A DNA stretch of 64,000 nucleotides from Bacilli bacterium (GCA_017470115.1 JAFUEZ010000002.1:49665-113664); one strand, 5' to 3'; counted from the first letter of the stretch, positions 3,130 to 60,721 are shown. The notes: a model not told the origin generated them from the sequence alone. Made by a program: numbers and translations.

Positions 3130-3284
3130 TATTTTCCTCCTAAAAATTATTGGCTAATATTATCGAAGCCTCAAAATTAATGACAAAACTATTATAAAAT
3201 TACTAATTTTACTTTGTTTCAATTGTGCATAAGTTTCGTTTAAATTGTCGTATTTTTAACTAAATCAAGGAAATTAGGTTTCAA

Positions 3285-15173: not shown

Positions 15174-15215
15174 ACTTAACTATATTAACATAGTTACCTC
15201 TATTTTGATATCACA

Positions 15216-15242
15216 GGGACAAAAAGTGCCCCTTTTGGGACA
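15216..15242 (-). promoter_or_regulatory. Two GGGACA direct repeats 21 bp apart upstream of the kinase/regulator operon; a putative autoregulatory LytTR site.
   Basis: The sequence tcacaGGGACAaaaagtgccccttttGGGACAaac lies 45-70 bp upstream of the kinase start. Confidence 0.45.
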
Positions 15243-15398
15243 AACAAAATGTTTTTGTATTGACAAGTTCATATGCAAAACTCGTTTTATTTATTTTGTT
15301 ATAAATCTCTCGTACTTCGTTCAACAATTTGAAGAATTATAAGAAAGAAAAAGATGCCATTATAGACTAAATGGGTTCACTTCAAATGCTAATCTTTT

Positions 15399-15674
15399 TT
15401 AATTGTCATCATAATGAGACCACATTGAATGTATTACGACTGTGTTAATATCTTTGTGAACTTTATAAACTAGACGATGTTGAAGATTAATTCTTCTAGA
15501 ATAATAACCTTGTAAATCACCAACCAGTTTTTCATAGTTAGGTGGGTTTTGAAAAGGATTTTTTGCGATAAGGTTTAATAATTTCTTTACTTTGTCTTCT
15601 AATCCAGCGTTTTTAAGTAGTTTTTTATCTTTTTCAGCGTTTTTGGTGAATTTAATAATCCACATAACTACCAC
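15399..15674 (-). CDS. yoeB: YoeB/Txe-family type II toxin (mRNA interferase).
   Basis: KLVGDLQGYYSRRINLQHRLVYKV...SMWSHY matches the YoeB family signature. The gene overlaps the upstream antitoxin gene. Confidence 0.8.
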   Translation of the reverse strand: MVVMWIIKFTKNAEKDKKLLKNAGLEDKVKKLLNLIAKNPFQNPPNYEKLVGDLQGYYSRRINLQHRLVYKVHKDINTVVIHSMWSHYDDN

Positions 15675-19300: not shown

Positions 19301-19452
19301 TTGTTACTAGTAGTAAAAATCCTTGGGAATGGTGGCGTCCAACATTAGTCAGTATTGATGTCGCTATTGGAGGAGGACTCTTATTCTGCCTCTACTTGCT
19401 TTTAAGACCAATTGTGGAACCAGAAGAAAATGGAAAGGAGGGTGTAGAATAA
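16399..19452 (+). CDS. Second GH3-family glycosidase of 1017 aa, a paralog of 7742..10753 with the same permuted domain order and both N- and C-terminal TM anchors.
   Basis: KHFAVNDQEYHRVG and GMIVTDYCES lie at the C-terminal end. AVLVKNDGTLPL...GGGSGAVN lies at the N-terminal end. The C-terminal TM helix is LVSIDVAIGGGLLFCLYLLL. Confidence 0.8.
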   Translation: MFKRYFGNATKKQIKTKIVLIAAFLPLIIATFIGLGIGNHFAFNVYDSNITAYLCNPVAGNNESIIATKKSGNELSREIEREGAVLVKNDGTLPLDKSINKVNVFGHSSIDWYYSGGGSGAVNANGEIQYNVPTALMNNGVEYNHDLYNFYTNFRGPLGGNNPNLGGARAETICVLAEPTLSSYGNLLNSAKSFSNTAIMCISRKAGETEDIPHAQYKYNADTDFTRGYLTISTEEEALLEWICDNFENVIVLINSTNLMQLDFLDRIEKIDACLICGCTGNYGANGIVDIIYGEVSPSGKTTDTYPYKLEYEPSYYRGGYEYINNYEGAPSSAWPYNRNYKDRNERKVFYVDYIEGIYVGYKWYETADVEGFWDGEPYNGYENVVQFPFGFGMSYTTFSWELEETSLANGGRITSNKDEITVKVKVTNTGNFKGKDVVEIYMTPPYYNGQIEKAHVNLVGFMKSPELESGQSVSLTYTIRVSDFESYDCYDKNNNGHVGYELDQGEYIIKFMEDSHTLKEMNTNTLTYHIDNTINVDVDEVTGQKVTNIFTGEKAIDGGSSDGSTLNQNVDFMTRENFVLPTTTQTNRNWNMALEVSPTSACINTYSTTIRDAWDNKTGNDGFGNQIPTTNPSWGSGSGSNKVITGGQLTELGRILADPENWNDDENWNKILDQISWDEAIDVINTNSLSNDKGIPSAGRPDGNDADGPQQIGAIAGIGSVRGTAYPCITVTGQTWSTSLAYQMGKSYGKDMQAVGRSGAYAFGANIHRSAYTGRNFEYFSEDGFLSGKMASNASKGVAVTGKYCFMKHFAVNDQEYHRVGLYTWVSEQAIREIYLKPFKECVLYGELSALMTSFNRIGSIWAGGSEALITGVLRNERQFHGMIVTDYCESSQLMDQAQAVRAGSDYGMNMHYTSGVSSSLPNRSSATPRFQWRMKDVCKEIIYGYIHPLLVNFNYNESADEEEYIIVTSSKNPWEWWRPTLVSIDVAIGGGLLFCLYLLLRPIVEPEENGKEGVE

Positions 19453-19453
19453 T

Positions 19454-20602
19454 ATGAAACGCAAACTTGCAAAGAAAATGTCTTTAATCCTTGGTATTAG
19501 TATTGCCTCCTTTGTAGTGGGTTTCAGTGCTATTACAATATTGGTGTCTAGAATTAACTACGCTAATTATGAAAAAGAATATGATGACGAAGTCAAAGAG
19601 GTTGAAAACGCAAAACCAAAAGGGCCACTTTATGTCGATATTGATAATGAATTTGTGACCTATGACAGCACTGGCGCTTTCATTCAAAAAACAAAATCTA
19701 TTTATCCCTATATTTACACTTGTAGAAGCACGGAAGCTGAATCCCGCGCATACGCTGCAGGAAAAAATGGCTACATAAACGTTGAAATCTATGATAACAC
19801 TTCATTTTTTGGACAGAGTATCGGTAATATTGCCCCAAACGGCGGAGGATATCTCTCCTTTATAGTTGATGTCACAGAACCTGCAGATGCGGATATTGAT
19901 TTTGTTTGTTCTTCTACTATTTATAATCCTGAAACTGGATCTGCTACAGATATGAAAGGATTAACAAAATTCGTTAAATGGACGATAAACAATATTCAAA
20001 TTGATGCTGACGATATCAATCTTCCTGCCGATAGAGATTGGTTTAATATGCAACATGTCATCCTTCATAAGGTTCATTTAAAAGCAGGGATTAATGTAAT
20101 TAAAATGGAAACCGAAAATCCAAACCCACTTAATCCTTCCGACATCCCGATTCCAAACATTTCTCATATCCATGTATTTAGTGAAAAACCATACAACAAA
20201 CAATTTGTCGTTGATGGTGATAGTGTCCACCTTGTTCAAAGAGCAAACAAAATTTATTATATGTTATCTGGCTCTTGTGTTGGTTATGAAGCAGATGATT
20301 TCTTTGTCGATATGTGCTTAGATGGTCAAAGCCTAAATCAAATCAACAAAAATGCATATGATTGCGTGGTAAGAGATGGTTATTTCTTAATCACTATTGA
20401 TACTTCGTGGTTTGCACCAAATCTATATCTCCCACACTTCTGGCTCGAAGGTTCTTTATATAACACTGGCAGAGAACAAGGTGATGTTATGACCTCAATT
20501 GACGCTGGTAGATATAATTGGGACAATCCTCACACCAAGCAAACACTTGGAAACGCTAGAATTGATATTAAGAATTCAATTATGGCATTAGTCATTAGCT
20601 AA
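19454..20602 (+). CDS. Membrane-anchored protein of 382 aa with a beta-rich extracellular domain, possibly a carbohydrate-binding module. It is translationally coupled to the GH3 gene.
   Basis: Its start lies 2 nt after the GH3 stop and an AAGGAGGG ribosome-binding site sits inside the GH3 3' end. It has an N-terminal TM helix. No catalytic motif was recognised. Confidence 0.5.
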   Translation: MKRKLAKKMSLILGISIASFVVGFSAITILVSRINYANYEKEYDDEVKEVENAKPKGPLYVDIDNEFVTYDSTGAFIQKTKSIYPYIYTCRSTEAESRAYAAGKNGYINVEIYDNTSFFGQSIGNIAPNGGGYLSFIVDVTEPADADIDFVCSSTIYNPETGSATDMKGLTKFVKWTINNIQIDADDINLPADRDWFNMQHVILHKVHLKAGINVIKMETENPNPLNPSDIPIPNISHIHVFSEKPYNKQFVVDGDSVHLVQRANKIYYMLSGSCVGYEADDFFVDMCLDGQSLNQINKNAYDCVVRDGYFLITIDTSWFAPNLYLPHFWLEGSLYNTGREQGDVMTSIDAGRYNWDNPHTKQTLGNARIDIKNSIMALVIS

Positions 20603-22946: not shown

Positions 22947-22954
22947 AAATAATT

Positions 22955-22975
22955 GAGTTTTGCAGGGTTTTTGCG
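22955..22975 (+). repeat. Instance of the recurring intergenic motif (GAGTTTTGCAGGGTTTTTGCG).
   Basis: It lies directly after the GAF gene stop and before the next ATG. Confidence 0.6.
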
Positions 22976-22979
22976 TTAT

Positions 22980-23708
22980 ATGTCAGGTTTAAATAATAAA
23001 AGATTGATCAAAATTGTTAAGTTTAAATCAAAATTCTCATCGAAACGATTAGTATCTTCTTTTGAAAGAGCTAAAAACGATGAAACAGATTTTTTAATCT
23101 TTTTTGATATTTTCAAATGTGACATTAACGCAGAAAACAAATTCAATCTTTTCCAGCAAGAGACAATTGATAACTCATTTTTAACTGAGTTTGTAAATTT
23201 AAAGAAGCAGGCGAGTACTGCAAAAATTAAACTTGGTTTTGGTTTCGACTTGCTTTCATCTTTTTCTGCCAAAGAGATTCGAAATAATAGAGAATACTTA
23301 GTAGCTTTCTTTAATTTTTTAATTCAGCATTTAGGTATTTCGGCTTTCTACTTTGAAAAAGCAAATGAATTACCTAAAGAGTTTCTACTTGAATTCTTTT
23401 CAAAAATAAAAGGTGTTTGCACATTTGGATCTACTACTTCTTCACTCTCTAATTCATTATCTGATTTTGAATTATATTCACTCGGTTTTAACGCCTTACA
23501 ATCGTCTTTTTTAGAAAATCAAATTGAACAATTGATAAAGTCCAATAGTAAGATTTCTCTTGATAAATTAGCTTCATTGCTAAGTTGGGAATCCCATTAC
23601 TTTAACAATTATTATCGAATTTTTAGAATCTATAAAAATGAAAAGATATCTTCTTTGTTAAATAAAGAGAAAAGTTTTCTTGTTTCATACGACATAATTA
23701 AAAGGTAA
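22980..23708 (+). CDS. Hypothetical protein. The start has been moved to the first ATG; the ORF track began at a TTG inside the motif.
   Basis: It is an ORF with no recognisable motifs. Its stop lies 5 nt before the start of the next gene. Confidence 0.4.
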   Translation: MSGLNNKRLIKIVKFKSKFSSKRLVSSFERAKNDETDFLIFFDIFKCDINAENKFNLFQQETIDNSFLTEFVNLKKQASTAKIKLGFGFDLLSSFSAKEIRNNREYLVAFFNFLIQHLGISAFYFEKANELPKEFLLEFFSKIKGVCTFGSTTSSLSNSLSDFELYSLGFNALQSSFLENQIEQLIKSNSKISLDKLASLLSWESHYFNNYYRIFRIYKNEKISSLLNKEKSFLVSYDIIKR

Positions 23709-25123: not shown

Positions 25124-25696
25124 ATGAAACAACAATCGACAACAAAAGAAGAAATCTTAAACACTTTTATTGACCTATTTAACTTTTTAGGCCCTTCTTT
25201 GACGTTGTCGCAAGTTTCAAAAGAATTACATATTTCTAAAAAAACTATTTATAAATATTTCTCATCAAAAAACGAAATCTACGAAGCTATTCTTGACAAC
25301 GTTGTTGAGGAAATATCAATTGCCCAAAAGCAAATATATGAAGACTCATCGCTTTCATTAGAAAAGAAAATATACAAATTATTAACTATCGAAACTACTG
25401 AAGAAAAAAGAATTAACATGTCTAAAATGTCAGCCCTTGCTGATACAGAGCCTAAATTCTTCAAAAGATTAATGGATGAATATGAAGTTAGATGGGATTA
25501 TTTTGCAAAATTAGTAAACGAAGGTAAACAACAAGGAATTATTAAAAAGGATACAAATGTTTATCTAGTAATCCGTGTTCTAGAATCTTCATTACAATCA
25601 TTCTATCGAAAGGATTTCTTCAAATTTACAGGTCTCACCTATACAAATGCAGTAAAACAGCTAGTAAATACCATCATTGAAGGAATCAAAGTCTAA
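25124..25696 (+). CDS. TetR/AcrR-family transcriptional regulator.
   Basis: The N-terminal helix-turn-helix reads LSQVSKELHISKKTIYKYFSSKNEIY. Confidence 0.8.
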   Translation: MKQQSTTKEEILNTFIDLFNFLGPSLTLSQVSKELHISKKTIYKYFSSKNEIYEAILDNVVEEISIAQKQIYEDSSLSLEKKIYKLLTIETTEEKRINMSKMSALADTEPKFFKRLMDEYEVRWDYFAKLVNEGKQQGIIKKDTNVYLVIRVLESSLQSFYRKDFFKFTGLTYTNAVKQLVNTIIEGIKV

Positions 25697-26613
25697 TGGA
25701 GCGGTATTACATCTTACTTATAATATTAGGATCAATAGTAATATTGTTCTTGGTATCGTCACTTCTTATCTCGATATTTCTTGCGCTATTCCTATGTAAC
25801 CCCTATAGATGGACACGTAAAAAAGCGTTTGATTGGGATTTTAATAAAGGTTGGATAAACGGAATCGAGAAAGTTAAATTAAATGAAGAAGTTTCAAAAT
25901 TATCCGATGGTTATGAGTTACATTGGAATTACGCGATGAATTCAGATTCAAACAAATTCGTAATTCTAATTCATGGATATGGTTGGACAAGAGAAGGCAT
26001 GTATAAATATGGCCTTCAATATATGAAACTTGACTTCAACATCATCACTTATGATTTAAGAGGTCATGGTGATAACAAAAGGTGTCCTATAACAATGGGA
26101 TATAAAGATGCAAAGGATCTTCACGAATTAATTTCTATCGTTAGAGAAAAATTCGGTAAAGATATATACCTTGGTATCCAAGGCGAATCTATGGGTGCTT
26201 CTACTGCTCTCATGGAAATGAAATATGATGATGAACTTAGGTTCGTTGTCGAAGATTGTGGGTATGCAACTTTAAAAGATGTTGTATATCACAAAACGAA
26301 GCAAGTCTTCCATTTACCAAAATTTTATGCAGATTTTGCAGGGTTATTTGTCAAAATGTTCTACAAATTCAGCTTTAATGAAGTTGAGCCAATGGAAGAT
26401 TGCAAAAATTCAAAGACACCTTTATTGATTATTCATGGCGATGCTGATGACTTTGTTCCTGTATCTTCTGCTTACAAGATTAAAGAAGCAAGAAACAAAG
26501 ATTCTTTAACTGAGTTGGTGATTGTCAAAGGTGCTGGGCATGCTAAAAGTTTGTCGCTTGATAACAATGCCTACTTAAATTACTTACAATATTTTTTAAA
26601 TAAGATAGCTTGA
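25696..26613 (+). CDS. Alpha/beta-hydrolase-fold protein (esterase/lipase-like) with an N-terminal TM anchor.
   Basis: It has the GESMG nucleophile elbow (G-x-S-x-G), a HGDADDFVP region containing the putative catalytic Asp, and a HAK histidine. Its start overlaps the TetR stop (TAATG). Confidence 0.7.
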   Translation: MERYYILLIILGSIVILFLVSSLLISIFLALFLCNPYRWTRKKAFDWDFNKGWINGIEKVKLNEEVSKLSDGYELHWNYAMNSDSNKFVILIHGYGWTREGMYKYGLQYMKLDFNIITYDLRGHGDNKRCPITMGYKDAKDLHELISIVREKFGKDIYLGIQGESMGASTALMEMKYDDELRFVVEDCGYATLKDVVYHKTKQVFHLPKFYADFAGLFVKMFYKFSFNEVEPMEDCKNSKTPLLIIHGDADDFVPVSSAYKIKEARNKDSLTELVIVKGAGHAKSLSLDNNAYLNYLQYFLNKIA

Positions 26614-26627
26614 AAGGAGGTTTATTT

Positions 26628-28118
26628 ATGGATGGAGAAATTCAAGCAAACAATTCCTCACCTAAATTAGTTGAACCTAAAGTAAAAACTAGTGCTGCTG
26701 TCTGGCTTGGTGTTGCTAATGCATCAACAGGTTTACTTTGTGCTTTTGCAGAAGGAACAGCATTAACTTATTTTTACCACAACTTCTTAGGTCTCAATGA
26801 GTGGGTATCAGGATTGATTTGGATCTTATTTGGTATTTGGAACGCAGTTAATGATCCACTTTATGGTTTCTTGGCCGACAGAACAAAATCAAAACTCGGA
26901 AGAAGAAGACCATGGATTAGATATGGTGCTCCAATAATGGCAGTATTATTTGCTATTACTTGGATATCATTCCCTGCAATGAAAGGAAATCAATGGTTCT
27001 TAGGTTTCCAAATGGGTATATCCTTATTCTTATATGATATCGTTTACACCGCTATTGCATCTGCAATTTACGTCATGCCTTATGAAATGGCCGTTACTGA
27101 TAATGCAAGATCACCAATTTTTGTTTGGAACGTAGCGTTCTCGCTTGTTTCATTTGGTGCTCCAATGGTTTTAAATGGAATGTTAACAACATTAATTGAA
27201 ACTCATGCTGACATTTTCCCTTGGGCAATGGCCGCCGCTGGTTTAGTCGCTGGTGCTTTAGTTTTTGTTTCTACATTCTTCTACAAAGAAAACGGTTATC
27301 ACAGAGAAGAACCTCAACCAAAGTTCTTAGAAGGTTTAAAACAATGTGTTAAAAATAAATCTTTCTTAATCTTTGAAGTTTTATCATGGACAGTTATTTT
27401 TGCACAAAACGCATTAATGTTAGGTCTTACTTACTATGCAGGAATGTGGCCAGAAAATAACATGATTATTTTATATGCTGCCCTTGCTGTTGGTGCTTTA
27501 CTCTCAATTCTCTTCTATATCTTTATGAGAAATAAACTTGGCAATAAGATTGAAGCATTGATTATGTGTGGTTCATTTGGAGCTGGTTGTTTACTTGCTT
27601 CATTCTTAGGACAATACTTCTGGGTATTAGTTTTAGGATTCTTCCTTGTTGGTATTGGATTCTCGGGTGGTCTTTACCTTGTTCCATTAGTTAATGGTGA
27701 CGTTATTGATAAAGATGAAGTCGACAATGGTTCACGTAGAGAAGGTGTTTATGCAGGTATCAACTCACTTATTACAAAACCAGCAGGCGCTATCGCACAA
27801 GCCATTTTCCCAATTTTCATGAGCTGGGCAGGTTTCAATGCACAATTAAAAACAACCGATGAAAAAGGAAACGAAATTACCGATTGGGCAAGTCAACCTG
27901 ATTCAGCAAAAACTGGTTTATTCCCATCATGGTTCTTAGTCACAGGTATCTTACTTGCTTTATCATTCTTAGCAATGTGGTTCTTCCCTCTTCACGGCAA
28001 AGCTTGGGAAGACACTAAAAAAGAGCTTGCTATTGAACATCAAAAGAAAGAAGAAGCTTACGAGCAAAAGATCCTTGCTGAAATGCAAGCAAATCAAGCC
28101 ACAGGTGAAATTAAATAA
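26628..28118 (+). CDS. MFS-type transporter (glycoside-pentoside-hexuronide:cation symporter-like). The start has been moved to the ATG that follows a GGAGG ribosome-binding site.
   Basis: It has twelve predicted TM segments and the LGRRRPW motif typical of GPH/MFS_2 transporters. Confidence 0.7.
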   Translation: MDGEIQANNSSPKLVEPKVKTSAAVWLGVANASTGLLCAFAEGTALTYFYHNFLGLNEWVSGLIWILFGIWNAVNDPLYGFLADRTKSKLGRRRPWIRYGAPIMAVLFAITWISFPAMKGNQWFLGFQMGISLFLYDIVYTAIASAIYVMPYEMAVTDNARSPIFVWNVAFSLVSFGAPMVLNGMLTTLIETHADIFPWAMAAAGLVAGALVFVSTFFYKENGYHREEPQPKFLEGLKQCVKNKSFLIFEVLSWTVIFAQNALMLGLTYYAGMWPENNMIILYAALAVGALLSILFYIFMRNKLGNKIEALIMCGSFGAGCLLASFLGQYFWVLVLGFFLVGIGFSGGLYLVPLVNGDVIDKDEVDNGSRREGVYAGINSLITKPAGAIAQAIFPIFMSWAGFNAQLKTTDEKGNEITDWASQPDSAKTGLFPSWFLVTGILLALSFLAMWFFPLHGKAWEDTKKELAIEHQKKEEAYEQKILAEMQANQATGEIK

Positions 28119-28143
28119 TAATTTCTAAACTTTAAAAAAGACA

Positions 28144-28192
28144 AAATCTCTGCAAAAATGTTAAATTTTAACAAAAACAGAGATTTTTCTTT
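28144..28192 (+). terminator. Long imperfect hairpin (AAATCTCTG...CAGAGATTT) followed by a T-run.
   Basis: A 9-bp stem encloses an AT-rich loop and is followed by TTTTCTTTTG. Confidence 0.45.
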
Positions 28193-28249
28193 TGAAAAAT
28201 CTTTAATTTTTGTTTCTACTCTTTTAATATTTATAAAGAGGTACTCAAA

Positions 28250-29545
28250 ATGGCAAAACATAAATTAACCATGCAAGAGAAACTTGATAAAAGAAAATAC
28301 AAAAAACCAAATCGCTTTTTATGGTGGTTTTTTTATCATCTAGTTATCAAACCATTTCTTTCGCCAATGCATAAAGTTGAAGTCGAGATTAAAGATAGCA
28401 TAAAGGATACTAAAGGTGCTGCATTTATTATCTATAATCATCAGTCAAGAACAGATTTTATTTGGCAAACTCAATGTGCTCAAGGTAGACCATTAAATTT
28501 CATGGTCGGTTATAACGAATTTTTTAGATCGCATTTAAAATTTATTGCTCATCTTCTTCATTTTATCCCTAAAAAGAACTTCACTCTTGATATGGGTTCT
28601 ATGAGAGCCGTAAGAACTATTATTAAAGATGGCGGAGTTGTTTGCTTTGCTCCTGAAGGAATGTCTTCTATTAACGGACACAACCAGCCAATAGTTGTCG
28701 GGACAGGAAAAATGCTCAAAAAATATGGTGTTCCAGTTTATTGTGCAAAAGCAAAAGGCGCTTTCTTATCAAATACCAAAGTATGTTTAGACGAAAGAAA
28801 AGGTAAAACAGTAGCTACAATGTCACTTCTTTTCTCTCCTGAAGATTTGAAAGTTTTATCTCCAGAAGAAATTGATGCAAAAATTAATGAAGCAATCTGG
28901 CAAGACGACTATGCTTACAATAAAGAAGCTCATATAAAATACGATGGTAAGGGCAATATTTGTTCACATCTACATGATTTATTGTATCGCTGTCCAAAAT
29001 GTGGTCATGAATTTGAGATGATTGGCGAAGGCAACGAAATTAAATGTCTAAATTGTGGAAACGGCGCAACAATGGATGACTATTATGATTTCCATCCATT
29101 TGAAGGCTCTATTATTCCAAGTGATCCAGCAAGATGGCACGATGAAGAGCGTAAAATTGTCTATCACGAAATAAAAGATAATCCTAACTTTGAATTTATA
29201 GAAAAAGTTAAGGTTGGTTATTTGCCTCCTTATCACTCTCCAAAAAATAAAGCTACTTCAGAAGTTTGTGGCGAAGGAGTCATGAAATTTACTCATGAAG
29301 GTATATTTTTTGAAGGAACTAAACTCGGAAAACCATTTAATTTTACTCTTGACTATCAAACCTATAATACTTTAGTCATTACAGTTGATTGTACCTATTT
29401 TGCTTTCTATATAAATGGAGAATATTTTGACTTCTTCCCAGAAAGACCAACGGTTGGTAAAATTTTGTTAATTGTTGAAGAGATGCATAGACTTCATGGA
29501 GGCAGGCGGAAAAACTTACCACAACTTGATTGGGTATATGAATAA
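28250..29545 (+). CDS. PlsC-type acyltransferase fused to a C-terminal region that contains a four-Cys zinc-ribbon.
   Basis: The acyltransferase motif I is NHQSRTDF (H-x4-D) and PEG is present. The zinc ribbon reads CPKCGHEFEMIGEGNEIKCLNCG. Confidence 0.6.
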   Translation: MAKHKLTMQEKLDKRKYKKPNRFLWWFFYHLVIKPFLSPMHKVEVEIKDSIKDTKGAAFIIYNHQSRTDFIWQTQCAQGRPLNFMVGYNEFFRSHLKFIAHLLHFIPKKNFTLDMGSMRAVRTIIKDGGVVCFAPEGMSSINGHNQPIVVGTGKMLKKYGVPVYCAKAKGAFLSNTKVCLDERKGKTVATMSLLFSPEDLKVLSPEEIDAKINEAIWQDDYAYNKEAHIKYDGKGNICSHLHDLLYRCPKCGHEFEMIGEGNEIKCLNCGNGATMDDYYDFHPFEGSIIPSDPARWHDEERKIVYHEIKDNPNFEFIEKVKVGYLPPYHSPKNKATSEVCGEGVMKFTHEGIFFEGTKLGKPFNFTLDYQTYNTLVITVDCTYFAFYINGEYFDFFPERPTVGKILLIVEEMHRLHGGRRKNLPQLDWVYE

Positions 29546-29575
29546 AAAAAGCAGACAGAAATGTCTGTTTTTTTA
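29541..29575. terminator. Bidirectional terminator between convergent genes (AAAAAAAGCAGACAGAAATGTCTGTTTTTTT).
   Basis: A 6-7 bp stem is flanked by an A-run and a T-run. Confidence 0.65.
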
Positions 29576-29580
29576 AAAAT

Positions 29581-29606
29581 AGTCAGTTTTTGCAAGGTTA
29601 TTTACG
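29581..29606 (+). repeat. Variant instance of the recurring motif (AGTCAGTTTTTGCAAGGTTATTTACG).
   Basis: It is near-identical to the copy at 35581-35606. Confidence 0.6.
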
Positions 29607-30392
29607 AATTTGTGGCGTCCCGTTCAATTTTTGTTGACGCATCCAAGTACCCATAACCATCTTTTTAGGAAGTAATCTAACAAGAATTCTTTGGGCATTA
29701 TTTTTAAAACCATAGCATGAAATTTCTTTCTTTTTATATAAATCTTTTATGGCTTTTTTCATAACTTTATGTGGGTCATACATTGCAGCATATTTTATAA
29801 CAACCGGTTTTTTATCCGTATCTACAGCTCTATCAAAAAAAGCTGTTTTTGTCCAAAACGGAGTTACAGTTAATACATGAATTTTTCTATATTTAAGTTC
29901 AACGTTTAATGCTCTTCCATAACTTAAAACAAATGCTTTAGTTGCTCCATAACACGCAATATAAGGAATTGGTTGGAAGCCTGCACAACTTGCAATATTC
30001 ATAATTTTTCCACCTTCTTCTATATAAGGTAAAGAAATCGAAATTGTATTAACGTAACTTGAACAGTTCAAATCCACCATTTCATTTAAAACTTTATAAT
30101 CGATATTTTCTGTATGATCAAAAATGCCAAAACCAGCGCAGTTAGCTAAAATTCTGATTTTTACTTCTTCTGCTTCGATTATCTTTTTATATTCTTCAAA
30201 GCTTTCTTTTTTAGCTAAATCAAGTGGAATTATTTTAACAGGTGTTTTTATTTCCTCTTTTAATTCTTCTAATTTTTTGACACTTCTAGCAATTGCCCAA
30301 ATCTCATCAACTTTTTCTATTTCTTCGATTTGCTTGATAAAATCTCTTCCCATACCGCTTGAAGCACCAGTTACAACTATAATTTTCTTCAT
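29598..30392 (-). CDS. Short-chain dehydrogenase/reductase (SDR) family oxidoreductase.
   Basis: It has the VTGASSGMG cofactor-binding motif (TGxxxGxG) and the YGATKAF catalytic motif (YxxxK). Confidence 0.8.
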   Translation of the reverse strand: MKKIIVVTGASSGMGRDFIKQIEEIEKVDEIWAIARSVKKLEELKEEIKTPVKIIPLDLAKKESFEEYKKIIEAEEVKIRILANCAGFGIFDHTENIDYKVLNEMVDLNCSSYVNTISISLPYIEEGGKIMNIASCAGFQPIPYIACYGATKAFVLSYGRALNVELKYRKIHVLTVTPFWTKTAFFDRAVDTDKKPVVIKYAAMYDPHKVMKKAIKDLYKKKEISCYGFKNNAQRILVRLLPKKMVMGTWMRQQKLNGTPQIRK

Positions 30393-30499: not shown

Positions 30500-31663
30500 A
30501 TGGAATTAAAATTTGAAAAAGTAAATGGTGAACTAATCATCTATTTCCCCGATAGAGTTGATACACAAAATGCGGCAGATTTTGAAGAATCAATTTTTAA
30601 AATTTTGGGTAATCAACGCGCTGAAAAAATCGTTTTAAACCTTCAAGACCTTGATTATATTTCTTCTGTTGGTCTTAGAATTGTCCTTAAAATTAAAAAA
30701 CAATTTAATGAACTTTCAATTATTGAAGTCAGCTCAGAAGTTTATGAAATTTTCTCAATGACTGGTTTTACAGATATTATTGATATCAAAAAAGCTCTTA
30801 GAGTAGTTTCAATTGAAGGATGCAAAATTATTGGTGAAGGTTTCTATGGAAAAGTTTATAGAATTTCTCCAGATACAATCCTTAAACATTTTTTCAAAGG
30901 TAATCCTGTTGAAGACATCGAAAGAGAAAGACAAAACGCTAAAAACGCCTTTGTTCTAGGTGTTCCAACTGCTATTTCTTATGACGTTGTTAGAGTTAAA
31001 GAAGGTGGTTATGGCGCTATTTATGAACTTATTGATGCAAAATCATTAAAAACTTATCTTTTAGATTTAGGTGATCAAATTGATGCAGCAGTAAAACTTT
31101 CTGCAAGACTTTTAAGAAAACTTAATACCACAGAATGTATATCAACCGCTTTACCAAGAGCAACAGATATTGCAAATAAATGGTTAAAAAAAATTAAACC
31201 TCTCTTTAATGATGAAGATAACGCTAAAATTAAGAGTTTATTTGATACTATTCCTGATGAAGATTTCTTGATTCATGGTGATTGCCATGTTAAAAACGTT
31301 TTCATTCAAGAAAGTGAGCCAATTTTAATTGATATGGATTCAATGCAAATCGGTTCGAACATTTTTGAATATGCAGATTTATATATTCCATATATTGCCT
31401 ATGCATTAGATGATCCTGAAAACCAAGAAAAATTCTTTGGTATTCCTGCAAAGACTTGCAAAGATTTGTTCTATGGAATCTTAAATGAAATTTATGGCGA
31501 TAGACCAGACTATGAAGAAATTGTCCAAAAAATTCAATTTGTTGGTGATGTCCACTTCTTAAGTAAAATTCAAACGACTGGGCAAAATTTCCCTGAAAGA
31601 CAGAATAACGCTATAGCCAGAATTAAAGAAGGTTTAAGCAAATTAACAACCTTGAAATACTAA
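30500..31663 (+). CDS. Fusion protein of 387 aa: an N-terminal STAS (anti-sigma-factor-antagonist-like) domain joined to a C-terminal eukaryote-like/APH-type phosphotransferase (kinase) domain.
   Basis: The STAS region DLDYISSVGLRIVL carries the DxSG phospho-Ser context. The kinase has a Gly-loop IGEGFYGKVYR, a catalytic loop IHGDCHVKNVF and the metal-binding motif IDMDS. Confidence 0.6.
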   Translation: MELKFEKVNGELIIYFPDRVDTQNAADFEESIFKILGNQRAEKIVLNLQDLDYISSVGLRIVLKIKKQFNELSIIEVSSEVYEIFSMTGFTDIIDIKKALRVVSIEGCKIIGEGFYGKVYRISPDTILKHFFKGNPVEDIERERQNAKNAFVLGVPTAISYDVVRVKEGGYGAIYELIDAKSLKTYLLDLGDQIDAAVKLSARLLRKLNTTECISTALPRATDIANKWLKKIKPLFNDEDNAKIKSLFDTIPDEDFLIHGDCHVKNVFIQESEPILIDMDSMQIGSNIFEYADLYIPYIAYALDDPENQEKFFGIPAKTCKDLFYGILNEIYGDRPDYEEIVQKIQFVGDVHFLSKIQTTGQNFPERQNNAIARIKEGLSKLTTLKY

Positions 31664-31672
31664 TTAATTGAA

Positions 31673-31714
31673 ATAAAAAATAACCCTGTTAAATTTATAA
31701 AACAGGGTTTTTTA
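31673..31714 (+). terminator. Rho-independent terminator AACCCTGTT-loop-AACAGGGTTTTTT.
   Basis: A 9-bp perfect stem is followed by a T-run. Confidence 0.7.
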
Positions 31715-31727
31715 ATATAAATATTTA

Positions 31728-31746
31728 GGTTTTGCGGGGTTTTTAC
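31728..31746 (+). repeat. Instance of the recurring motif (GGTTTTGCGGGGTTTTTAC).
   Basis: It lies between the convergent gene ends, after the terminator. Confidence 0.55.
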
Positions 31747-32903
31747 AATAATTTAAATTCTAAAAGTGATGGGTCGTGGTCCGAAAAAGCAAACCCATCA
31801 AGACCTTTATTTCCGTTTTTTGTTTGAATGTTTTCGTGAGAAACAACTTCAATGTTTTCCGAAACTATAAAACCGTCAATTGCTGTTGTATAAGTTTTCC
31901 CAGGGATATATTCAATATCATTATTTCTAGATGTTGGATAGTTGTCGCTTGCAACAACTTTAAAGCCTTCGATTACAGGAGATTTTCCTTCTTCATCAAA
32001 GAACTTGCTAACCCAATCTGGATCTTTTTTGGTTTCTCCAAATGGTCTATGGTCTGTTGTGTTATAAGTAAAATCAGGATTGTTAGTTAATAAATCGTTG
32101 TTCCAATCTCCAGCAAAAACAACATAGTCTCCATTATCTTTTCTTTCTTTTAAGAAAGCATTAAGTTCTTCAACTTGTTTTGCTCTAATAACGCCGCCTT
32201 CATCGTAAGCAGACATGTGGGAATTACAAATATATAATTTCCTCCCGTTAGAAACGTCGATTACAGAGGAAGAAAAGCATCTATCTAAATCAAAGAATTT
32301 TGAAAAACCAGTTGATACAGTGTATTCGTGTCTTTTTGCTTCTTGAATTTTATATTTTGATATAGTTGTTAGTCCACCTTTAACTGCTCCGTGCATATCA
32401 TAAAGTGGATAAGGTAAAAATGCGCTATGAAAATTTATTGCATGAACATGATCATAAGCAGGGTATTTTTCTTGAATTTTACTATCTTGATTAATGTGAT
32501 AGCTTCTTGTTGAATCCGTATCTACTTCTTGAAAACAAACAAAATCAGGATTTTGCTCCAAAGTTGTACTAATAGCCCCATTAGTATTAAAAATTACTTC
32601 ATCTTTTGATTTTGCAGTAGAGTGGTGGCCACAAGTTTCTTTTCCTTCTTCATCATATCCAGTATCTAAGAAGAAATCGAAGTCTTGAGAATAAGCACCA
32701 AAACCAATGTTATAAGTTAAAACTTTATAAGTGTCTCCAACTGCAACTTTTTCAAGCTCAGATTTTGAGTCTACTTTTAAGTCGCAATCCCCAATTCTAT
32801 TATAAGAAAGGATAACATAACCAACATATCCACCAGCACCTAAAACAACGACACCAACAAAAATTCCAGCGCCTATTAAAACTCTCTTTAAAATCTTATT
32901 CAT
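31743..32903 (-). CDS. Membrane-anchored endonuclease/exonuclease/phosphatase (EEP) family protein. The start has been moved to the internal ATG, because the track start is a TTG.
   Basis: The C-terminal FSDHDP motif and an N-terminal TM helix are present. It shows an overall EEP pattern (FQEV...D...N...SDHxP). Confidence 0.6.
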   Translation of the reverse strand: MNKILKRVLIGAGIFVGVVVLGAGGYVGYVILSYNRIGDCDLKVDSKSELEKVAVGDTYKVLTYNIGFGAYSQDFDFFLDTGYDEEGKETCGHHSTAKSKDEVIFNTNGAISTTLEQNPDFVCFQEVDTDSTRSYHINQDSKIQEKYPAYDHVHAINFHSAFLPYPLYDMHGAVKGGLTTISKYKIQEAKRHEYTVSTGFSKFFDLDRCFSSSVIDVSNGRKLYICNSHMSAYDEGGVIRAKQVEELNAFLKERKDNGDYVVFAGDWNNDLLTNNPDFTYNTTDHRPFGETKKDPDWVSKFFDEEGKSPVIEGFKVVASDNYPTSRNNDIEYIPGKTYTTAIDGFIVSENIEVVSHENIQTKNGNKGLDGFAFSDHDPSLLEFKLL

Positions 32904-32954
32904 GTTTTTTTTCTCTAACGTTTTAGCAAAATAAAAGAAAAGCAATTCTAAGAA

Positions 32955-33134
32955 TTAAATCTTTTTTGAAATTGCTTCTTTAACGTCTTCTTCTAATTCT
33001 TTTTCCTTTTGCTCTGTTTGAGCTTCTTCCTTTTCTTTCTTTCTATCAGCTATTTCTTTTTTTAGCATAAAAACACAAAGGACGACGAGCCCTGCAGTAA
33101 CTAAAGCAAATAAAATATATATCAATACACCCAT
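32955..33134 (-). CDS. Possible 59-aa single-TM membrane protein with a Lys/Glu-rich tail (below the ORF-track cutoff).
   Basis: The ATG at about 33134 opens an ORF beginning MGVLIYILFALVTAGLVVLCVFML followed by a charged tail. Confidence 0.25.
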   Translation of the reverse strand: MGVLIYILFALVTAGLVVLCVFMLKKEIADRKKEKEEAQTEQKEKELEEDVKEAISKKI

Positions 33135-33230
33135 GTTATTATTCTATCATAATTTCATTGAAATGAATTAATAAAAGAAAAGAAGATTTTTAATTAACTC
33201 TTTGGCTTAAAGCATCTTGTTTAAACGTTA

Positions 33231-33253
33231 AAAAAACCTGCAAAACCTCATTC
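33231..33253 (-). repeat. Instance of the recurring motif in minus orientation (GAATGAGGTTTTGCAGGTTTTTT).
   Basis: It lies in the divergent intergenic region upstream of the sensor gene. Confidence 0.55.
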
Positions 33254-33352
33254 TTTATTACTTATTTTCATTTTTTTGACATATAGTTTTATATTTTTAA
33301 TTATTTGCTAACAAATAATTGATATAATAATTAACAATTAGAGGGCGTGATT

Positions 33353-35482
33353 ATGGCTGAGAAAAAAGTTAAAGTTAAATTTTCTATTAGGTGGAAGTTA
33401 TTTCTTTCTTTCGTTGTCTTCGCTCTCCTCTTATCAAACATAACTTTAACAATCTCTTATTTTGTCTATAGAAAGACTTCAGAAGAAGGTTATGGTGCAA
33501 CCGCTCTTAACCTTGCAAAGACTCAAGCATCTTCTGTTGATACTGCAGCTTTAAAAGAAGTTAAGGAATTAGTTTTAACAAAATTTGATGAAGTTATTGA
33601 GGAAAACAATAACGAACTTCCTGATTTAGATGATGAAACACAAAAAACTACATTTTTAGCAAACTTTGATAGCGTTAGTTCTAATTCTTCGTTTATTAAA
33701 ATTCAATCTTATCTTGATAGTATTTTTGAAGACAATACTGTTGCTTCAACTTATTTTGCAGTAATCAGTTCAAAATATGATGCATTAATTGTTTTAGCAG
33801 ATTCAAAACATTCAAATAATTACTCGGCACCAGGTTATTTTGATTATCCTTTATCAAAAGAACAAAAAGACCAAATTAAAGATCTTCCTGCAAAAGATCA
33901 AATTATTAAACCTTATCTTGACGAGTCACTAAATTATGGCGCAATTTTATGTACAGCTGTCCCTATTCTTGATAGCGATGAATCATTAATTTGCCACTCA
34001 TACGTTGATATAGGTTTTGCTAAAGTTATGAGTGGAATCCAAAACTTTTTAACTAGTTTAGGTGTATTTGTTGGCATATTCGCACTTGCTTTCACAGTTT
34101 TAGCTGTTTTCTTATTTAATTTAACAATTGTTAAACCTATTAAAAAGCTTGATGAAGCAACTACTTCTTATTTAGAAGAAGGAAATGAAAATAACACGCA
34201 AGAATCACAAATTTCAAAATTGAAAATTAATACAAAAGATGAGGTTGAACATTTAACTCATTCTATTCAAACCTTGGAAAAAAGCATTGCTGGTTATATT
34301 GCTTCAATTAAAAACATTTCTGCTCAACAAGAACGTTATAGTACTGAGCTTGATATCGCTGAAAAAATTCAAAGAGGTTTGCTTCCAAACAACTTCCCAA
34401 ATAACGATAACTTTCAAATAACCGCTTATATCGATCCAGCAAAAGAAGTTGGCGGCGATTTTTATGATTTCTTTATGGTTGATGAAACACATTTGGCTTT
34501 AGTTATCGCTGATGTTTCTGGTAAAGGCATTCCTGCAGCACTTTTCATGGCCATTGGTAAAACTTTATTAATGGACCACACAATTAATTCTAAAAACTTA
34601 TCTCAAACATTTACTCTTGTTAATAACCTTTTATCTAGAGGCAATTCATCCGATATGTTTATCACTGCTTATGAAGGTTTGCTCGATTTAGAAACTGGAG
34701 AATATAAGTTCGTAAACGCTGGGCACGAAATGCCATTTATATATAAAGAAAAGAACAATACATTTGAATCATATAGATGTAAACCAGGTTTTGTCCTAGC
34801 TGGTATGCCAGAAGTTAAATACCAAGAAGGACAATTAAAATTAGAACCAGGCGATAAGATTTTCCTTTATACTGATGGTATTCCTGAAGCTTCAAACGAC
34901 GCTAAAAACAGATTTGGCATGGAGAAATTACAAAGAGTCTTAAGAGAAAATAGACGCGAAGATACAGAAACAATTATTGATTCTGTTAAACGTGAAGTCG
35001 ATAGATTTGTTAATGGAGCTCCTCAGTTTGATGATATAACAATGCTTTGCTTTGAATTTAAGCAAAAAATTGAAGGAAGAACTAGAAAACTTGAGGTAGG
35101 TGCAAATCTTTCTAATTTTGTAAAGGTTCTTGATTTTATCAACAACCATCTTGAACTTAACTATGTTGAAAAGAAAACAATTAACAAAATCGATATTGCT
35201 CTTGATGAACTTTTCTCAAATATTTGTAATTACGCATATGATGATGGCTTAGGAAAGGTAACTGTTACGGTCTCTGTCACTTCTACTAATATTAAAATTT
35301 CTTTAATTGATGATGGAAAACCATATAATCCTCTTGAACATGATGATCCTGACATTACTCAATCTGTTAAGGAAAGACAAATTGGTGGTTTAGGAATTAT
35401 GATGGTCAAGAAGACAATGGATGATGTTAAATACGAATACAAGCACAAACAAAACATTATCACCATTATTAAGAATCTTTAG
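33353..35482 (+). CDS. Transmembrane sensor with an extracytoplasmic domain and a HAMP-like linker, fused to a PP2C/SpoIIE-family phosphatase and a C-terminal GHKL anti-sigma-factor-type Ser kinase (RsbU-like joined to RsbW-like).
   Basis: There are two TM segments. The PP2C motifs are GGDFYDF, DVSGKGIPAALFMA and YTDGIPEA. The C-terminal region IALDELFSNICNYAYDDG...GGLGIMMVKKTMDDV matches RsbW/SpoIIAB. The start has been moved to the ATG after a GAGGG ribosome-binding site. Confidence 0.7.
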   Translation: MAEKKVKVKFSIRWKLFLSFVVFALLLSNITLTISYFVYRKTSEEGYGATALNLAKTQASSVDTAALKEVKELVLTKFDEVIEENNNELPDLDDETQKTTFLANFDSVSSNSSFIKIQSYLDSIFEDNTVASTYFAVISSKYDALIVLADSKHSNNYSAPGYFDYPLSKEQKDQIKDLPAKDQIIKPYLDESLNYGAILCTAVPILDSDESLICHSYVDIGFAKVMSGIQNFLTSLGVFVGIFALAFTVLAVFLFNLTIVKPIKKLDEATTSYLEEGNENNTQESQISKLKINTKDEVEHLTHSIQTLEKSIAGYIASIKNISAQQERYSTELDIAEKIQRGLLPNNFPNNDNFQITAYIDPAKEVGGDFYDFFMVDETHLALVIADVSGKGIPAALFMAIGKTLLMDHTINSKNLSQTFTLVNNLLSRGNSSDMFITAYEGLLDLETGEYKFVNAGHEMPFIYKEKNNTFESYRCKPGFVLAGMPEVKYQEGQLKLEPGDKIFLYTDGIPEASNDAKNRFGMEKLQRVLRENRREDTETIIDSVKREVDRFVNGAPQFDDITMLCFEFKQKIEGRTRKLEVGANLSNFVKVLDFINNHLELNYVEKKTINKIDIALDELFSNICNYAYDDGLGKVTVTVSVTSTNIKISLIDDGKPYNPLEHDDPDITQSVKERQIGGLGIMMVKKTMDDVKYEYKHKQNIITIIKNL

Positions 35483-35633: not shown

Positions 35634-35720
35634 TGGTGCTCCCGACCGGAATCGAACCGGTACGTTATCGCTAACACTAGATTTTGAGTCTAGCGCGTCT
35701 ACCAATTCCGCCACGGGAGC
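35634..35720 (-). tRNA. tRNA-Leu with anticodon CAA (type II, long variable arm), ending in an encoded CCA.
   Basis: The reverse complement reads GCTCCCGTGGCGGAATTGGTAGACGCGCTAGACTCAAAATCTAGTGTTAGCGATAACGTACCGGTTCGATTCCGGTCGGGAGCACCA. The acceptor stem, D-arm (GG), anticodon loop CUCAAAA and TPsiC-arm GGTTCGATTCC are all present. Confidence 0.85.
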
Positions 35721-35815
35721 AACATTGATATTTTATCAAAAATAAAAATAAAATCGAGTAATTATTATAAAAAAGCGAACCGTACTAGATTCGCCTTAAA
35801 TTTAAATTCTTTTAA

Positions 35816-56590: not shown

Positions 56591-56609
56591 AAAAATTACC
56601 TTTAATAGA

Positions 56610-58744: not shown

Positions 58745-58745
58745 T

Positions 58746-60071: not shown

Positions 60072-60073
60072 TT

Positions 60074-60718: not shown

Positions 60719-60721
60719 GAA

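Follow-up and report, generated by a model that had tools for sequence, protein, structure and literature searches.

What does a partner-switching-type locus control when no sigma factor accompanies it? The question is raised by two plus-strand genes in the 64-kb stretch of DNA analysed here (the window), one encoding a STAS domain fused to an APH/choline-kinase-like domain (STAS-APH) and the other a membrane sensor that carries a PP2C phosphatase and a GHKL kinase on one chain. A sequence-only reading had proposed a self-contained phospho-switch without a sigma factor, whose output is the fused kinase. Our analysis supports the core of this proposal, and we lean, with somewhat better than even confidence, towards the window holding a minimal two-gene form of a conserved, sigma-independent partner-switching-type phospho-switch with the STAS-fused kinase as its output. 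The features on which the argument rests are as follows.

30500..31663, + strand: STAS-APH gene (387 aa), N-terminal STAS joined to an APH/choline-kinase-fold kinase; putative switch client and output
30500..30799, + strand: STAS domain of the RsbV/SpoIIAA type (aa 1-100)
30665..30667, + strand: Ser56 codon in DYISSVGLR, the predicted phospho-acceptor
30812..31660, + strand: kinase domain (aa 105-387), with G112xG114, K129, E143, H259GDxHxKN266 and ID278M
31743..32945, - strand: membrane-anchored EEP-family hydrolase, probable start ATG 32903 (386 aa), with an N-terminal TM helix (Exo_endo_phos, E 3.4e-10)
32955..33134, - strand: 59-aa peptide with one TM helix (aa 1-29) and a Lys/Glu-rich tail
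33353..35482, + strand: membrane sensor (709 aa), comprising TM1, ectodomain, TM2, HAMP-like linker with signalling helix, PP2C and GHKL
33476..34048, + strand: extracytoplasmic alpha+beta domain (~aa 42-232), PDC/Cache-like in its secondary-structure pattern
34484..35059, + strand: PP2C/SpoIIE phosphatase domain (aa 378-569), with GGDxYD, DVSGKG, TDG and DDxT (SpoIIE, E 5e-44)
35105..35473, + strand: RsbW/SpoIIAB-type GHKL serine-kinase domain (aa 585-707), with N-box ExxxN, G1 Asp and GGLG (HATPase_c_2, E 1.3e-21)

Domains of the STAS-kinase fusion and the sensor

Every feature first described lies at its given position or no more than a few bases from it, and all four Pfam profiles corresponding to the domains first read from the sequence (STAS, APH, SpoIIE and HATPase_c_2) gave matches. 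In STAS-APH, those to STAS (aa 5-99, E 1.8e-14) and APH (PF01636; aa 109-295, E 1.5e-8) both exceed gathering thresholds, and the 60.8 bits obtained with NCBIfam ant_ant_sig exceed its cutoff of 53.45. The serine context DYISSVGL is intact, as had been claimed; its S56 aligns with Ser58 of SpoIIAA and is 100 % conserved across 82 sequences. The Gly-loop, HGD loop and metal-binding Asp are equally real, G112/G114, K129, E143, H259-G-D261, N266 and D278 being essentially invariant among the 82 family members. Since these catalytic residues (94-100 % conserved) are maintained alongside Ser56, the same selection acts on the enzymatic half and on the switch. The AF2 model (pLDDT 91.7, pTM 0.79) shows a bilobal kinase fold, and its pTM suggests that the STAS domain is packed against the kinase.

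The kinase first labelled ‘eukaryote-like’ is of the APH/choline-kinase class. A Hanks-type Ser/Thr protein kinase was rejected: Pkinase gave no match, the loop reads HGDCHVKN, and the closest structural matches are small-molecule kinases, namely the choline/ethanolamine kinase family, APH(2''), APH(4) and Rv3168. Identity to solved APH/choline-kinase members is just 9-19 %. Among curated families, NCBIfam TIGR02172 (Fibrobacter paralogous kinase-like; 87.4 bits, E 1.2e-24) scored highest for the kinase half; it was also rejected, its curated cutoff being 228.2. A weak NCBIfam match was obtained to the Ser/Thr kinase PRK11768. Curated aminoglycoside-resistance families fared worse, with 16.9 bits for APH_6 (cutoff 325) and, in STAS-APH relatives, 22 bits for APH_3p (cutoff 205). 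Across all curated APH resistance families the scores were 17-22 bits against cutoffs of 205-400, which counts against an ordinary antibiotic phosphotransferase.

The sensor begins where originally placed, at ATG 33353, with a ribosome-binding site (AGAGGG) 7 nt upstream; the mechanical ORF begins at GTG 33347. Hydropathy places the two expected TM helices at about aa 16-41 and 233-266, and the AF2 model (pLDDT 84.5) has an alpha+beta ectodomain between them, with helices at 64-127 followed by strands at 132-221. In a Pfam search, no family matched this ectodomain even at E 10, and dCache_1 matched weakly in one sensor homolog. For the HAMP-like linker the signals are mixed: the window sensor has no match to HAMP (PF00672) even at E 10, but 11 of 33 aligned full-length homologs have one at the corresponding position (best E 1e-7), and the model shows a helix-connector-helix arrangement (helices 223-275 and 297-343). 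Both catalytic assignments hold. Among 34 aligned sensors, GGD371, D389-x-SGKG, TD510G and D562-D563 of the PP2C domain are invariant, as are E621, N625, D655 and G680-G683 of the GHKL domain, which matches NCBIfam RsbW and SpoIIAB below cutoff.

The EEP hydrolase and the 59-aa membrane peptide described between the two genes are both present and both lineage-specific. Synteny of the EEP gene is confined to the same lineage (L003 and the P0267 contig), making it no conserved part of the module, and the peptide was found in L001-L003 only. With the orientation + - - +, the four genes do not form one operon, and STAS-APH and the sensor are here separate transcription units with two opposite-strand genes between them. 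Same-lineage relatives retain the STAS-APH/EEP/sensor layout, at identities from 67 % (sensor) to 79 % (STAS-APH). As first reported, no sigma or anti-sigma factor was found by Pfam searches of every ORF of at least 90 aa in the 64-kb window, including two running off its ends; tblastn revealed no second STAS, PP2C, GHKL or HD_4 in the window, which also contains no RiPP-type genes.

Gene linkage across STAS-APH relatives

At least 575 species genomes, most of them from rumen and gut Firmicutes, contain relatives of STAS-APH. Linkage was counted at 52 informative loci, each flanked on either side by 2.5 kb of sequence or more. At 41 of these, STAS-APH has a same-strand PP2C and/or GHKL gene no more than 4 kb away, in 27 cases as the fused PP2C-GHKL form; roughly one in five STAS-APH genes has neither neighbour. 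Within 4 kb of STAS-APH there are 8.5 PP2C genes per 100 kb, versus 0.4 beyond, and 8.9 GHKL genes versus 0. All near copies share the strand of STAS-APH, and compared with the outer flanks of these loci the enrichment is about 20-fold. Module genes mostly abut, STAS-APH > PP2C-GHKL and PP2C-GHKL > STAS-APH being among the orders seen, and the GHKL domain may be fused outright, either as STAS-APH-GHKL (L075, L077, L079, P0142, P0220) or in the opposite order (GHKL-STAS-APH, P0173). Given this linkage and the fusions in both orders, the pairing of STAS-APH with the sensor is not a matter of chance.

Gene order also bears on the output. In L038, L052 and L062 the arrangement is STAS > GHKL > STAS-APH, which puts STAS-APH at the sigF/sigB slot of canonical operons and mirrors the order antagonist > anti-sigma > sigma, as in spoIIAA-spoIIAB-sigF. 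The conserved neighbour clusters of 80 STAS-APH loci include no sigma factor. The single sigma gene seen is of ECF type; it is found at L083, the locus of one of eight sensor homologs examined, two genes downstream of the sensor, and this locus has no STAS-APH.

Whether the switch is self-contained, as had been proposed, is uncertain. At many loci STAS-APH is accompanied by a free STAS paralog that shares the YISSAGL motif and could there be the true phosphorylation target. The sensor family also serves other clients: STAS-APH adjoins 2 of the 8 sensor homologs examined, and 5 of the 8 belong to another module composed of a free STAS, LPG_synthase_C and MatE(-GHKL).

The wider surroundings vary. 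A RelA/SpoT-type HD_4 hydrolase lies inside the operon at about a quarter of loci, and at 8 of 80 loci, as well as at L086, the module is embedded in clusters that also contain radical-SAM enzymes, small ORFs and C39-peptidase ABC exporters. Rare STAS-APH fusions carry PHP 3',5'-bisphosphate-phosphatase-like, HD-CE or CCA/poly(A)-type nucleotidyltransferase domains; another rare form, a K+/H+ antiporter-STAS-APH fusion, resembles the transporter-STAS architecture.

Proposed output and competing explanations

Most likely, the PP2C/GHKL sensor switches the attached kinase via STAS instead of controlling a sigma factor. A signal, extracytoplasmic or from the membrane, would reach the sensor by way of its ectodomain and HAMP-like linker and would shift the balance between the opposing RsbW-type GHKL serine kinase and PP2C phosphatase activities, whose common substrate would be Ser56 of STAS-APH. 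The phosphorylation state of STAS, its capture by the GHKL domain, or both, may then turn the APH/choline-kinase-fold kinase on or off. The output would be phosphorylation of a substrate by the APH half, most likely a small molecule, and not release of a sigma factor. The action of GHKL and PP2C on Ser56 is inferred, and so are the gating of the kinase, the sense in which it would work and the nature of the substrate. A sigma-less switch with a fused-kinase output is supported by the same-strand adjacency and its enrichment, the fusions, the sigma-like slot, the invariant residues, the lack of a sigma factor in the window and among conserved neighbours, the layout retained in same-lineage relatives and the precedents discussed below. 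Against it count the separate transcription units in the window, a sensor family not dedicated to STAS-APH, the STAS-APH genes that lack a PP2C or GHKL neighbour, the free STAS paralogs as possible substrates at many loci, and a view of the genome that spans 64 kb.

The same switch might instead drive a protein or peptide kinase, either in a two-tier kinase cascade or as a regulated RiPP/bacteriocin-modifying or immunity kinase. We regard this as an unlikely variant, though the strongest of the alternatives. The PRK11768 match and the exporter-containing clusters speak for it; the small-molecule kinases at the head of the structural matches, the failure of Pkinase to match and the window's lack of RiPP-type genes speak against it.

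A little less probable again is that STAS-APH acts mainly as an RsbV-like decoy that titrates the sensor's GHKL domain, the true GHKL target being a sigma factor or other effector encoded elsewhere and the APH activity accessory rather than regulated. NCBI names the family ‘anti-sigma factor antagonist’, the visible genome amounts to 64 kb, and in other modules the sensor family is paired with free STAS proteins. Moreover, the RpoS that the fused PP2C-GHKL proteins CrsR and HsbR sequester is encoded elsewhere (PMC6482189). A sigma factor for the GHKL domain to sequester was found neither in the 64 kb nor among the conserved neighbours of the 80 loci, and a sigma target could lie elsewhere in the genome, beyond the 64 kb seen. 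This reading sits poorly, however, with the ECF-type gene being the lone sigma gene and at a locus without STAS-APH, with the joint conservation of the catalytic residues and Ser56, with the free STAS already available for the antagonist role at many loci, and with the target slot that STAS-APH occupies in V-W-X operons.

That the neighbourhood is coincidental, and STAS-APH an ordinary antibiotic or metabolite phosphotransferase whose unphosphorylated STAS serves for ligand binding, like that of SulP/SLC26 transporters, is very improbable: the two separate transcription units and the unrelated genes that intervene, the antibiotic kinases among the nearest folds and the antiporter fusion would fit, but the roughly 20-fold same-strand linkage extends across distant taxa, GHKL is fused in both orders, the SSxGLR acceptor motif, of RsbV type, does not vary, and the resistance families score far below their cutoffs.

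Within the preferred reading, in which the sensor gates the STAS-fused kinase, one speculative extension seems to us a long shot. Under the gate of the signal, the APH half might phosphorylate a small molecule of ribose or nucleotide type and, with the HD_4 hydrolase, form a writer-eraser pair for an undescribed phosphorylated signalling nucleotide under partner-switch control; the PHP, HD-CE and nucleotidyltransferase fusions point the same way.

Relation to known partner switches

The RsbU-RsbV-RsbW/SigB and SpoIIE-SpoIIAA-SpoIIAB/SigF modules of Bacillus contain the same three parts with intact motifs (STAS acceptor Ser, GHKL Ser kinase and PP2C), and some STAS-APH relatives retain even their V > W > X gene order. 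They differ from the present locus, where no sigma factor was found, where PP2C and GHKL share one membrane-bound chain, and where STAS is covalently joined to an enzyme in the sigma slot. Fusion of switch components into multidomain proteins is shared with Mycobacterium tuberculosis Rv1364c, reportedly a PAS-PP2C-GHKL-STAS chain that still feeds SigF and has no enzymatic output domain.

Of the architecture described as non-canonical, the sensor's domain pairing is not new. A PP2C and an RsbW-type kinase on a single chain are already known from HsbR of Pseudomonas and CrsR of Shewanella (PMC6482189) and from SypE of Vibrio fischeri (PMC10120452), which set the phosphorylation of the STAS partners HsbA, CrsA and SypA. 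Outputs other than sigma factors are known there too, HsbA acting on the diguanylate cyclase HsbD and SypA on biofilm formation (PMC6482189, PMC10120452). Those proteins are cytoplasmic with receiver-domain input and single-domain STAS partners, whereas the window sensor has two TM helices and an ectodomain, and its STAS partner is fused to a kinase.

For the STAS-APH fusion, no description had been known at the outset. Our literature search found no paper describing it, and none mentioning TIGR02172; the APH/choline-kinase (PF01636) and TIGR02172 families share fold and catalytic motifs with the kinase half, but none is described with a STAS domain. The fusion is nonetheless abundant in databases, where NCBI names it ‘anti-sigma factor antagonist’ or ‘phosphotransferase’.

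Phospho-controlled STAS-effector fusions do have precedents. Anabaena All4160, an N-terminal STAS-glycosyltransferase, is directly controlled by STAS phosphorylation without a sigma factor, through the PP2C HenR and the kinases Alr3423 and All2284 (PMC13555669; architecture also mentioned in PMC8256260). It shares with STAS-APH the N-terminal STAS on an enzyme, for which we propose similar control, and differs in its glycosyltransferase output, its separate kinase and phosphatase proteins and its cyanobacterial host. In the second precedent, the RsbW-like GHKL kinase CapK phosphorylates the conserved STAS Ser of the STAS-wHTH repressor CapS and so directly changes effector activity (PMC13373217); the pairing of a GHKL kinase with a STAS-fused effector is common to both systems, but CapS binds DNA, no PP2C is involved, and the input is ssDNA instead of a membrane sensor. 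Set beside these systems, the locus would represent a variant of partner switching in which a fused enzyme takes the place of the sigma factor as output.

The STAS-APH and sensor genes of the window

The STAS-APH and sensor open reading frames were called at the coordinates proposed by the sequence-only reading, and Pfam searches matched all four domains it had named (STAS, APH, SpoIIE/PP2C and HATPase_c_2). The membrane-anchored hydrolase and the 59-aa membrane peptide that it had described between the two genes were also located:

30500-31663, plus strand: STAS-APH gene, 387 aa (ORF call, Pfam)
31743-32945, minus strand: membrane-anchored Exo_endo_phos (EEP) family hydrolase (Pfam and TM helix)
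32955-33134, minus strand: 59-aa peptide with one TM helix
33353-35482, plus strand: sensor gene, 709 aa (best start ATG at 33353)

STAS-APH carries a STAS domain at aa 5-99 (E 1.8e-14) and an APH domain (PF01636) at aa 109-295 (E 1.5e-8), both above the Pfam gathering threshold. In NCBIfam, ant_ant_sig scored above its family cutoff, and the best kinase-side family, TIGR02172 (E 1.2e-24), lay far under its own. On these profile matches the kinase half is placed in the APH superfamily but in no curated subfamily. Ser56 of the STAS domain aligns with Ser58 of SpoIIAA, the phospho-acceptor of that protein. A PDB sequence search with the family profile returned STAS matches and only marginal kinase matches. 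The AF2 model of STAS-APH was confident (pLDDT 91.7, pTM 0.79). No Hanks-type kinase stood at the head of its structural matches, and the peptide kinases LxmK and TvaE and the protein kinase YihE ranked lower; the kinase therefore belongs, as a divergent member, among the small-molecule kinases, though the fold itself does not give the substrate.

The sensor start is preceded by an AGAGGG ribosome-binding site 7 nt 5' of the ATG. The protein matches SpoIIE/PP2C (E 5e-44) and HATPase_c_2 (E 1.3e-21), and hydropathy gives two TM helices at about aa 16-41 and 233-266. In the AF2 model (pLDDT 84.5), TM1 runs into a long helix, followed by an α+β ectodomain with a five-stranded sheet and TM2, after which come a helix-connector-helix, a long signalling helix, PP2C and GHKL. 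A HAMP-like linker had been proposed by the earlier reading. The window's own sensor fell under every HAMP threshold, with no HAMP or Cache match in Pfam even at E 10, while HAMP was matched at the aligned position in 11 of 33 full-length homologs; these homologs and the modelled helix-connector-helix are what would make the linker HAMP-like. In 34 sensors the catalytic motifs of both PP2C and GHKL are unchanged throughout; the N-terminal input regions vary, comprising two TM helices with an ectodomain, 6-8 TM helices, 5TMR-LYT or dCache-HAMP.

As the earlier reading had stated, no sigma or anti-sigma factor lies nearby: Pfam found none in any other window ORF of at least 90 aa, the two truncated by the window ends among them. 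Nor did tblastn detect a second STAS, PP2C, GHKL or HD_4 gene in the window, from which a free STAS companion is absent.

The four genes are oriented + - - +, and STAS-APH and the sensor are therefore separate transcription units in the window. A promoter and terminator scan of the locus gave nothing above shuffled expectation. This arrangement, including the EEP gene, is kept exactly in the related locus L003 (STAS-APH 79 % identical) and on the contig of the homolog P0267 (sensor 67 % identical). The EEP gene and peptide are absent from more distant relatives and therefore represent a lineage-specific insertion between two module genes; the sole further EEP homolog among the related loci lies 6.5 kb off (L069). 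We accordingly rejected both as parts of the module, their synteny being confined to the same lineage. Upstream of STAS-APH, 25124-30392 holds a TetR > alpha/beta-hydrolase > MFS_2 transporter > PlsC-type acyltransferase operon, its acyltransferase bearing a zinc ribbon, with an SDR gene divergent from it. Together with the sphingomyelinase-like EEP gene, this gives the neighbourhood a lipid-remodelling flavour, conserved only in that lineage (L003 and the P0267 contig).

Within its 180-kb metagenomic scaffold, the window takes up the origin-proximal part. The chromosomal origin region occupies 55736-64000, with mnmE, jag, yidC and rnpA on the minus strand (58746-62884) and the dnaA start at about 63219 (plus strand), which puts the signalling locus some 28-33 kb from oriC. 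A tRNA-Leu(CAA) gene (35634-35720, minus strand) directly follows the sensor gene, and a terminator-like hairpin lies at 35772-35797 (minus strand). Elsewhere, two GH3-like proteins of about 1,000 aa each (7742-10753, minus; 16399-19452, plus) are permuted, the GH3 C-terminal domain preceding the N-terminal one, and stand beside genes for Big_2, Big_3 and CBM6 surface proteins (1-3153, 11421-12899). In the stretch 13091-15674 (minus), a LytTR response regulator is paired with a HATPase_c_5 (AgrC/LytS-like) histidine kinase, beside a YoeB/ParE-type toxin gene (15399-15674); a GGDEF protein is encoded at 6365-7480. Five ORFs of 215-476 aa had no Pfam match at E 0.01 (3883-5313, 5664-6362, 10760-11407, 19454-20602, 22953-23708).

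Distribution and gene linkage of the STAS-APH family

A search over 5.8 billion proteins returned 4,586 matches to STAS-APH. Among the best 120, nearly all were about 385-395 aa long with both domains, and the source names were 'anti-sigma factor antagonist' and 'phosphotransferase' only. When the kinase half alone was searched against 1.84 billion cluster representatives, 192 clusters matched at E ≤ 1e-30; in the top 150, about 128 had an N-terminal extension of roughly 105 aa and about 20 were stand-alone kinases. Scanning one genome per GTDB species yielded at least 575 genomes with a relative, from which 80 loci were kept. Most come from rumen or gut MAGs (Bacilli, Erysipelotrichaceae, Lachnospiraceae, Oscillospiraceae), with a few Spirochaetales and one cultured isolate, Butyrivibrio sp. 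MB2005. Across 82 STAS-APH sequences, S56, G58-L59-R60, G112, G114, K129, E143, H259, D261, N266 and D278 are 100 % conserved, and S55, G260, H263 and K265 are 94-99 % conserved.

A PP2C and/or GHKL gene lies within 4 kb of STAS-APH in 54 of the 80 loci, and in 41 of the 52 whose flanks reach at least 2.5 kb on each side, the two domains being fused in 27 of those 41. As an internal control, densities within 4 kb were compared with those beyond: 8.5 versus 0.4 per 100 kb for PP2C, and 8.9 versus 0.0 for GHKL. Every near copy is on the STAS-APH strand (PP2C 44/44, GHKL 46/46), and the module genes mostly abut. The commonest orders are STAS-APH > PP2C-GHKL (11 loci), STAS > STAS-APH > PP2C-GHKL (7) and PP2C-GHKL > HD_4 > STAS-APH (5). 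Three loci show STAS > GHKL > STAS-APH, which mirrors the antagonist > anti-sigma > sigma order of the spoIIA and sigB operons, STAS-APH taking the place of the sigma factor gene. GHKL is also fused directly to STAS-APH, C-terminally in L075, L077, L079, P0142 and P0220 and N-terminally in P0173. These observations support a functional link between STAS-APH and the sensor.

Paralogs are common, often several per genome (RGIG4442: L004, L046; RUI057: L010, L061; RUI408: L019, L082), and L007 carries a tandem duplicate (816-3253). Paralogy may explain 'solo' STAS-APH copies that have no adjacent sensor. Divergent sensors hidden beside these copies were sought and rejected, the large downstream ORFs being unrelated (including peptidase S41, carboxylesterases, EAL and cation efflux proteins).

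The reciprocal test began from the sensor family, which has at least 7,920 protein matches. Of eight sensor homologs whose neighbourhoods were read, STAS-APH adjoins two: the same-lineage P0267 and the dCache-HAMP-type P0304 in L086. Five others (38-41 % identical, same ectodomain type) belong to a sister module without STAS-APH, ordered [HD_4] > STAS > LPG_synthase_C > MatE(-GHKL) > PP2C-GHKL, and the last (L085) has a free STAS, MatE, a methyltransferase and a GNAT protein as companions. The sister module (L083, L084, L087, L088, L089; e.g. L088 3364-8136, L089 2375-8103) encodes a 98-aa STAS, an LPG_synthase_C protein of about 292 aa and a MatE/MurJ-like membrane protein of about 570-580 aa, in many cases with a C-terminal HATPase_c_2 domain. 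ABC exporters carrying a C39 peptidase domain are frequent neighbours of this module, which resembles a partner switch joined to a split, MprF-like system for envelope modification. The picture is of a general-purpose PP2C-GHKL switch whose STAS-domain clients are interchangeable, rather than a sensor dedicated to STAS-APH; STAS-APH depends on such a sensor, and the reverse is untrue.

In 30 of the 80 STAS-APH loci there is also a free STAS of about 98 aa with a YISSAGL motif, sharing 34-55 % identity with the fused STAS of its own locus. Such a protein may compete with STAS-APH for GHKL, and loci that have it would then be true partner switches.

The sequence-only reading had proposed a phospho-relay in which an extracellular signal would set the phosphorylation of the STAS domain and thereby perhaps gate the fused kinase. 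The comparative evidence strongly supports this as a sigma-less switch; phosphorylation, gating and substrate are what we infer.

Candidate outputs of the fused kinase

An HD_4 protein (RelA/SpoT-type, about 190 aa) occurs in 19 of the 80 loci, on the STAS-APH strand in 18 of these 19 and directly upstream of STAS-APH wherever gene order was assigned. With Lmo0812, the Rel hydrolase domain and Mesh1 as the best solved relatives, and with an HDVVEDT motif, it resembles a small alarmone hydrolase. It lies between the sensor or GHKL gene and STAS-APH in L032, L048, L050, L055, L056, L060, L063, L072, L073, L078 and L080, and is also found in L007, L022, L036, L045, L054, L065 and L066. Rare fusions join STAS-APH to a PHP domain resembling 3',5'-nucleoside-bisphosphate phosphatase, HD-CE, a PcnB/CCA-type nucleotidyltransferase or a K+/H+ antiporter. 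The extended architectures (P0177, P0205, P0234, P0247, P0173, P0142, P0220) include STAS-APH-PHP, HD-CE-STAS-APH, K+/H+ antiporter-STAS-APH and STAS-APH-PcnB/CCA, with GHKL on either end. The HD_4 neighbour and these fusions suggest nucleotide or ribose chemistry for the output. However, each fusion is a single cluster representative, and HD_4 also occurs in the APH-less sister module (L089), which weakens it as a specific partner of the APH kinase; we regard this chemistry as an unlikely reading.

Since some modules are embedded among radical-SAM enzymes, small ORFs and exporters of the C39-ABC type, the kinase may alternatively be directed at a peptide or antimicrobial. RiPP/bacteriocin-like clusters with the order STAS > STAS-APH > PP2C-GHKL were seen in Erysipelotrichaceae-type genomes (L009, L011-L013, L020, L026, L032, L046, L086; e.g. 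L086 2373-12559). Alongside a radical-SAM enzyme, they encode two ABC exporters (about 725 aa), one of them bearing a C39 peptidase domain, together with a conserved protein of unknown function (about 157 aa) and several small ORFs (76-92 aa). The window holds no HD_4 gene, no PHP, HD-CE, nucleotidyltransferase or K+/H+ antiporter fusion and no radical-SAM or C39-ABC gene.

Significance and comparison with known systems

STAS-APH adds a large (at least 575 species genomes), taxonomically broad and entirely unstudied family whose output would be a kinase fused to STAS. Its members are found chiefly in Firmicutes of the rumen and gut, a group with poorly understood signalling. If the sigma-less switch model is true, a membrane signal would be linked post-translationally to the phosphorylation of a metabolite, antimicrobial or nucleotide, with one PP2C-GHKL membrane sensor family re-used with interchangeable STAS clients. 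The model would also give a more specific meaning to hundreds of 'anti-sigma factor antagonist' or 'phosphotransferase' annotations, and make Butyrivibrio sp. MB2005 a cultured entry point for experiments.

Partner switching is the textbook Gram-positive control of alternative sigma factors. Sigma-independent outputs of STAS switches are established, and cases in which the phospho-switch acts directly on an enzyme or repressor are only recent. The present locus would work like a canonical partner switch, yet without its defining feature, the sequestered sigma factor. The sequence-only reading knew of no described STAS-APH fusion, and our literature search likewise found no relevant paper on a STAS-APH (STAS-kinase) fusion, on TIGR02172 or on STAS with a small alarmone hydrolase. 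Single chains that combine PP2C with an RsbW-type kinase are already well documented, namely HsbR and CrsR (PMC6482189) and SypE (PMC10120452). The closest precedents for a STAS-effector fusion are Anabaena All4160, a STAS-glycosyltransferase under HenR control (PMC13555669, PMC8256260), and CapS, a STAS-wHTH protein phosphorylated by CapK (PMC13373217).
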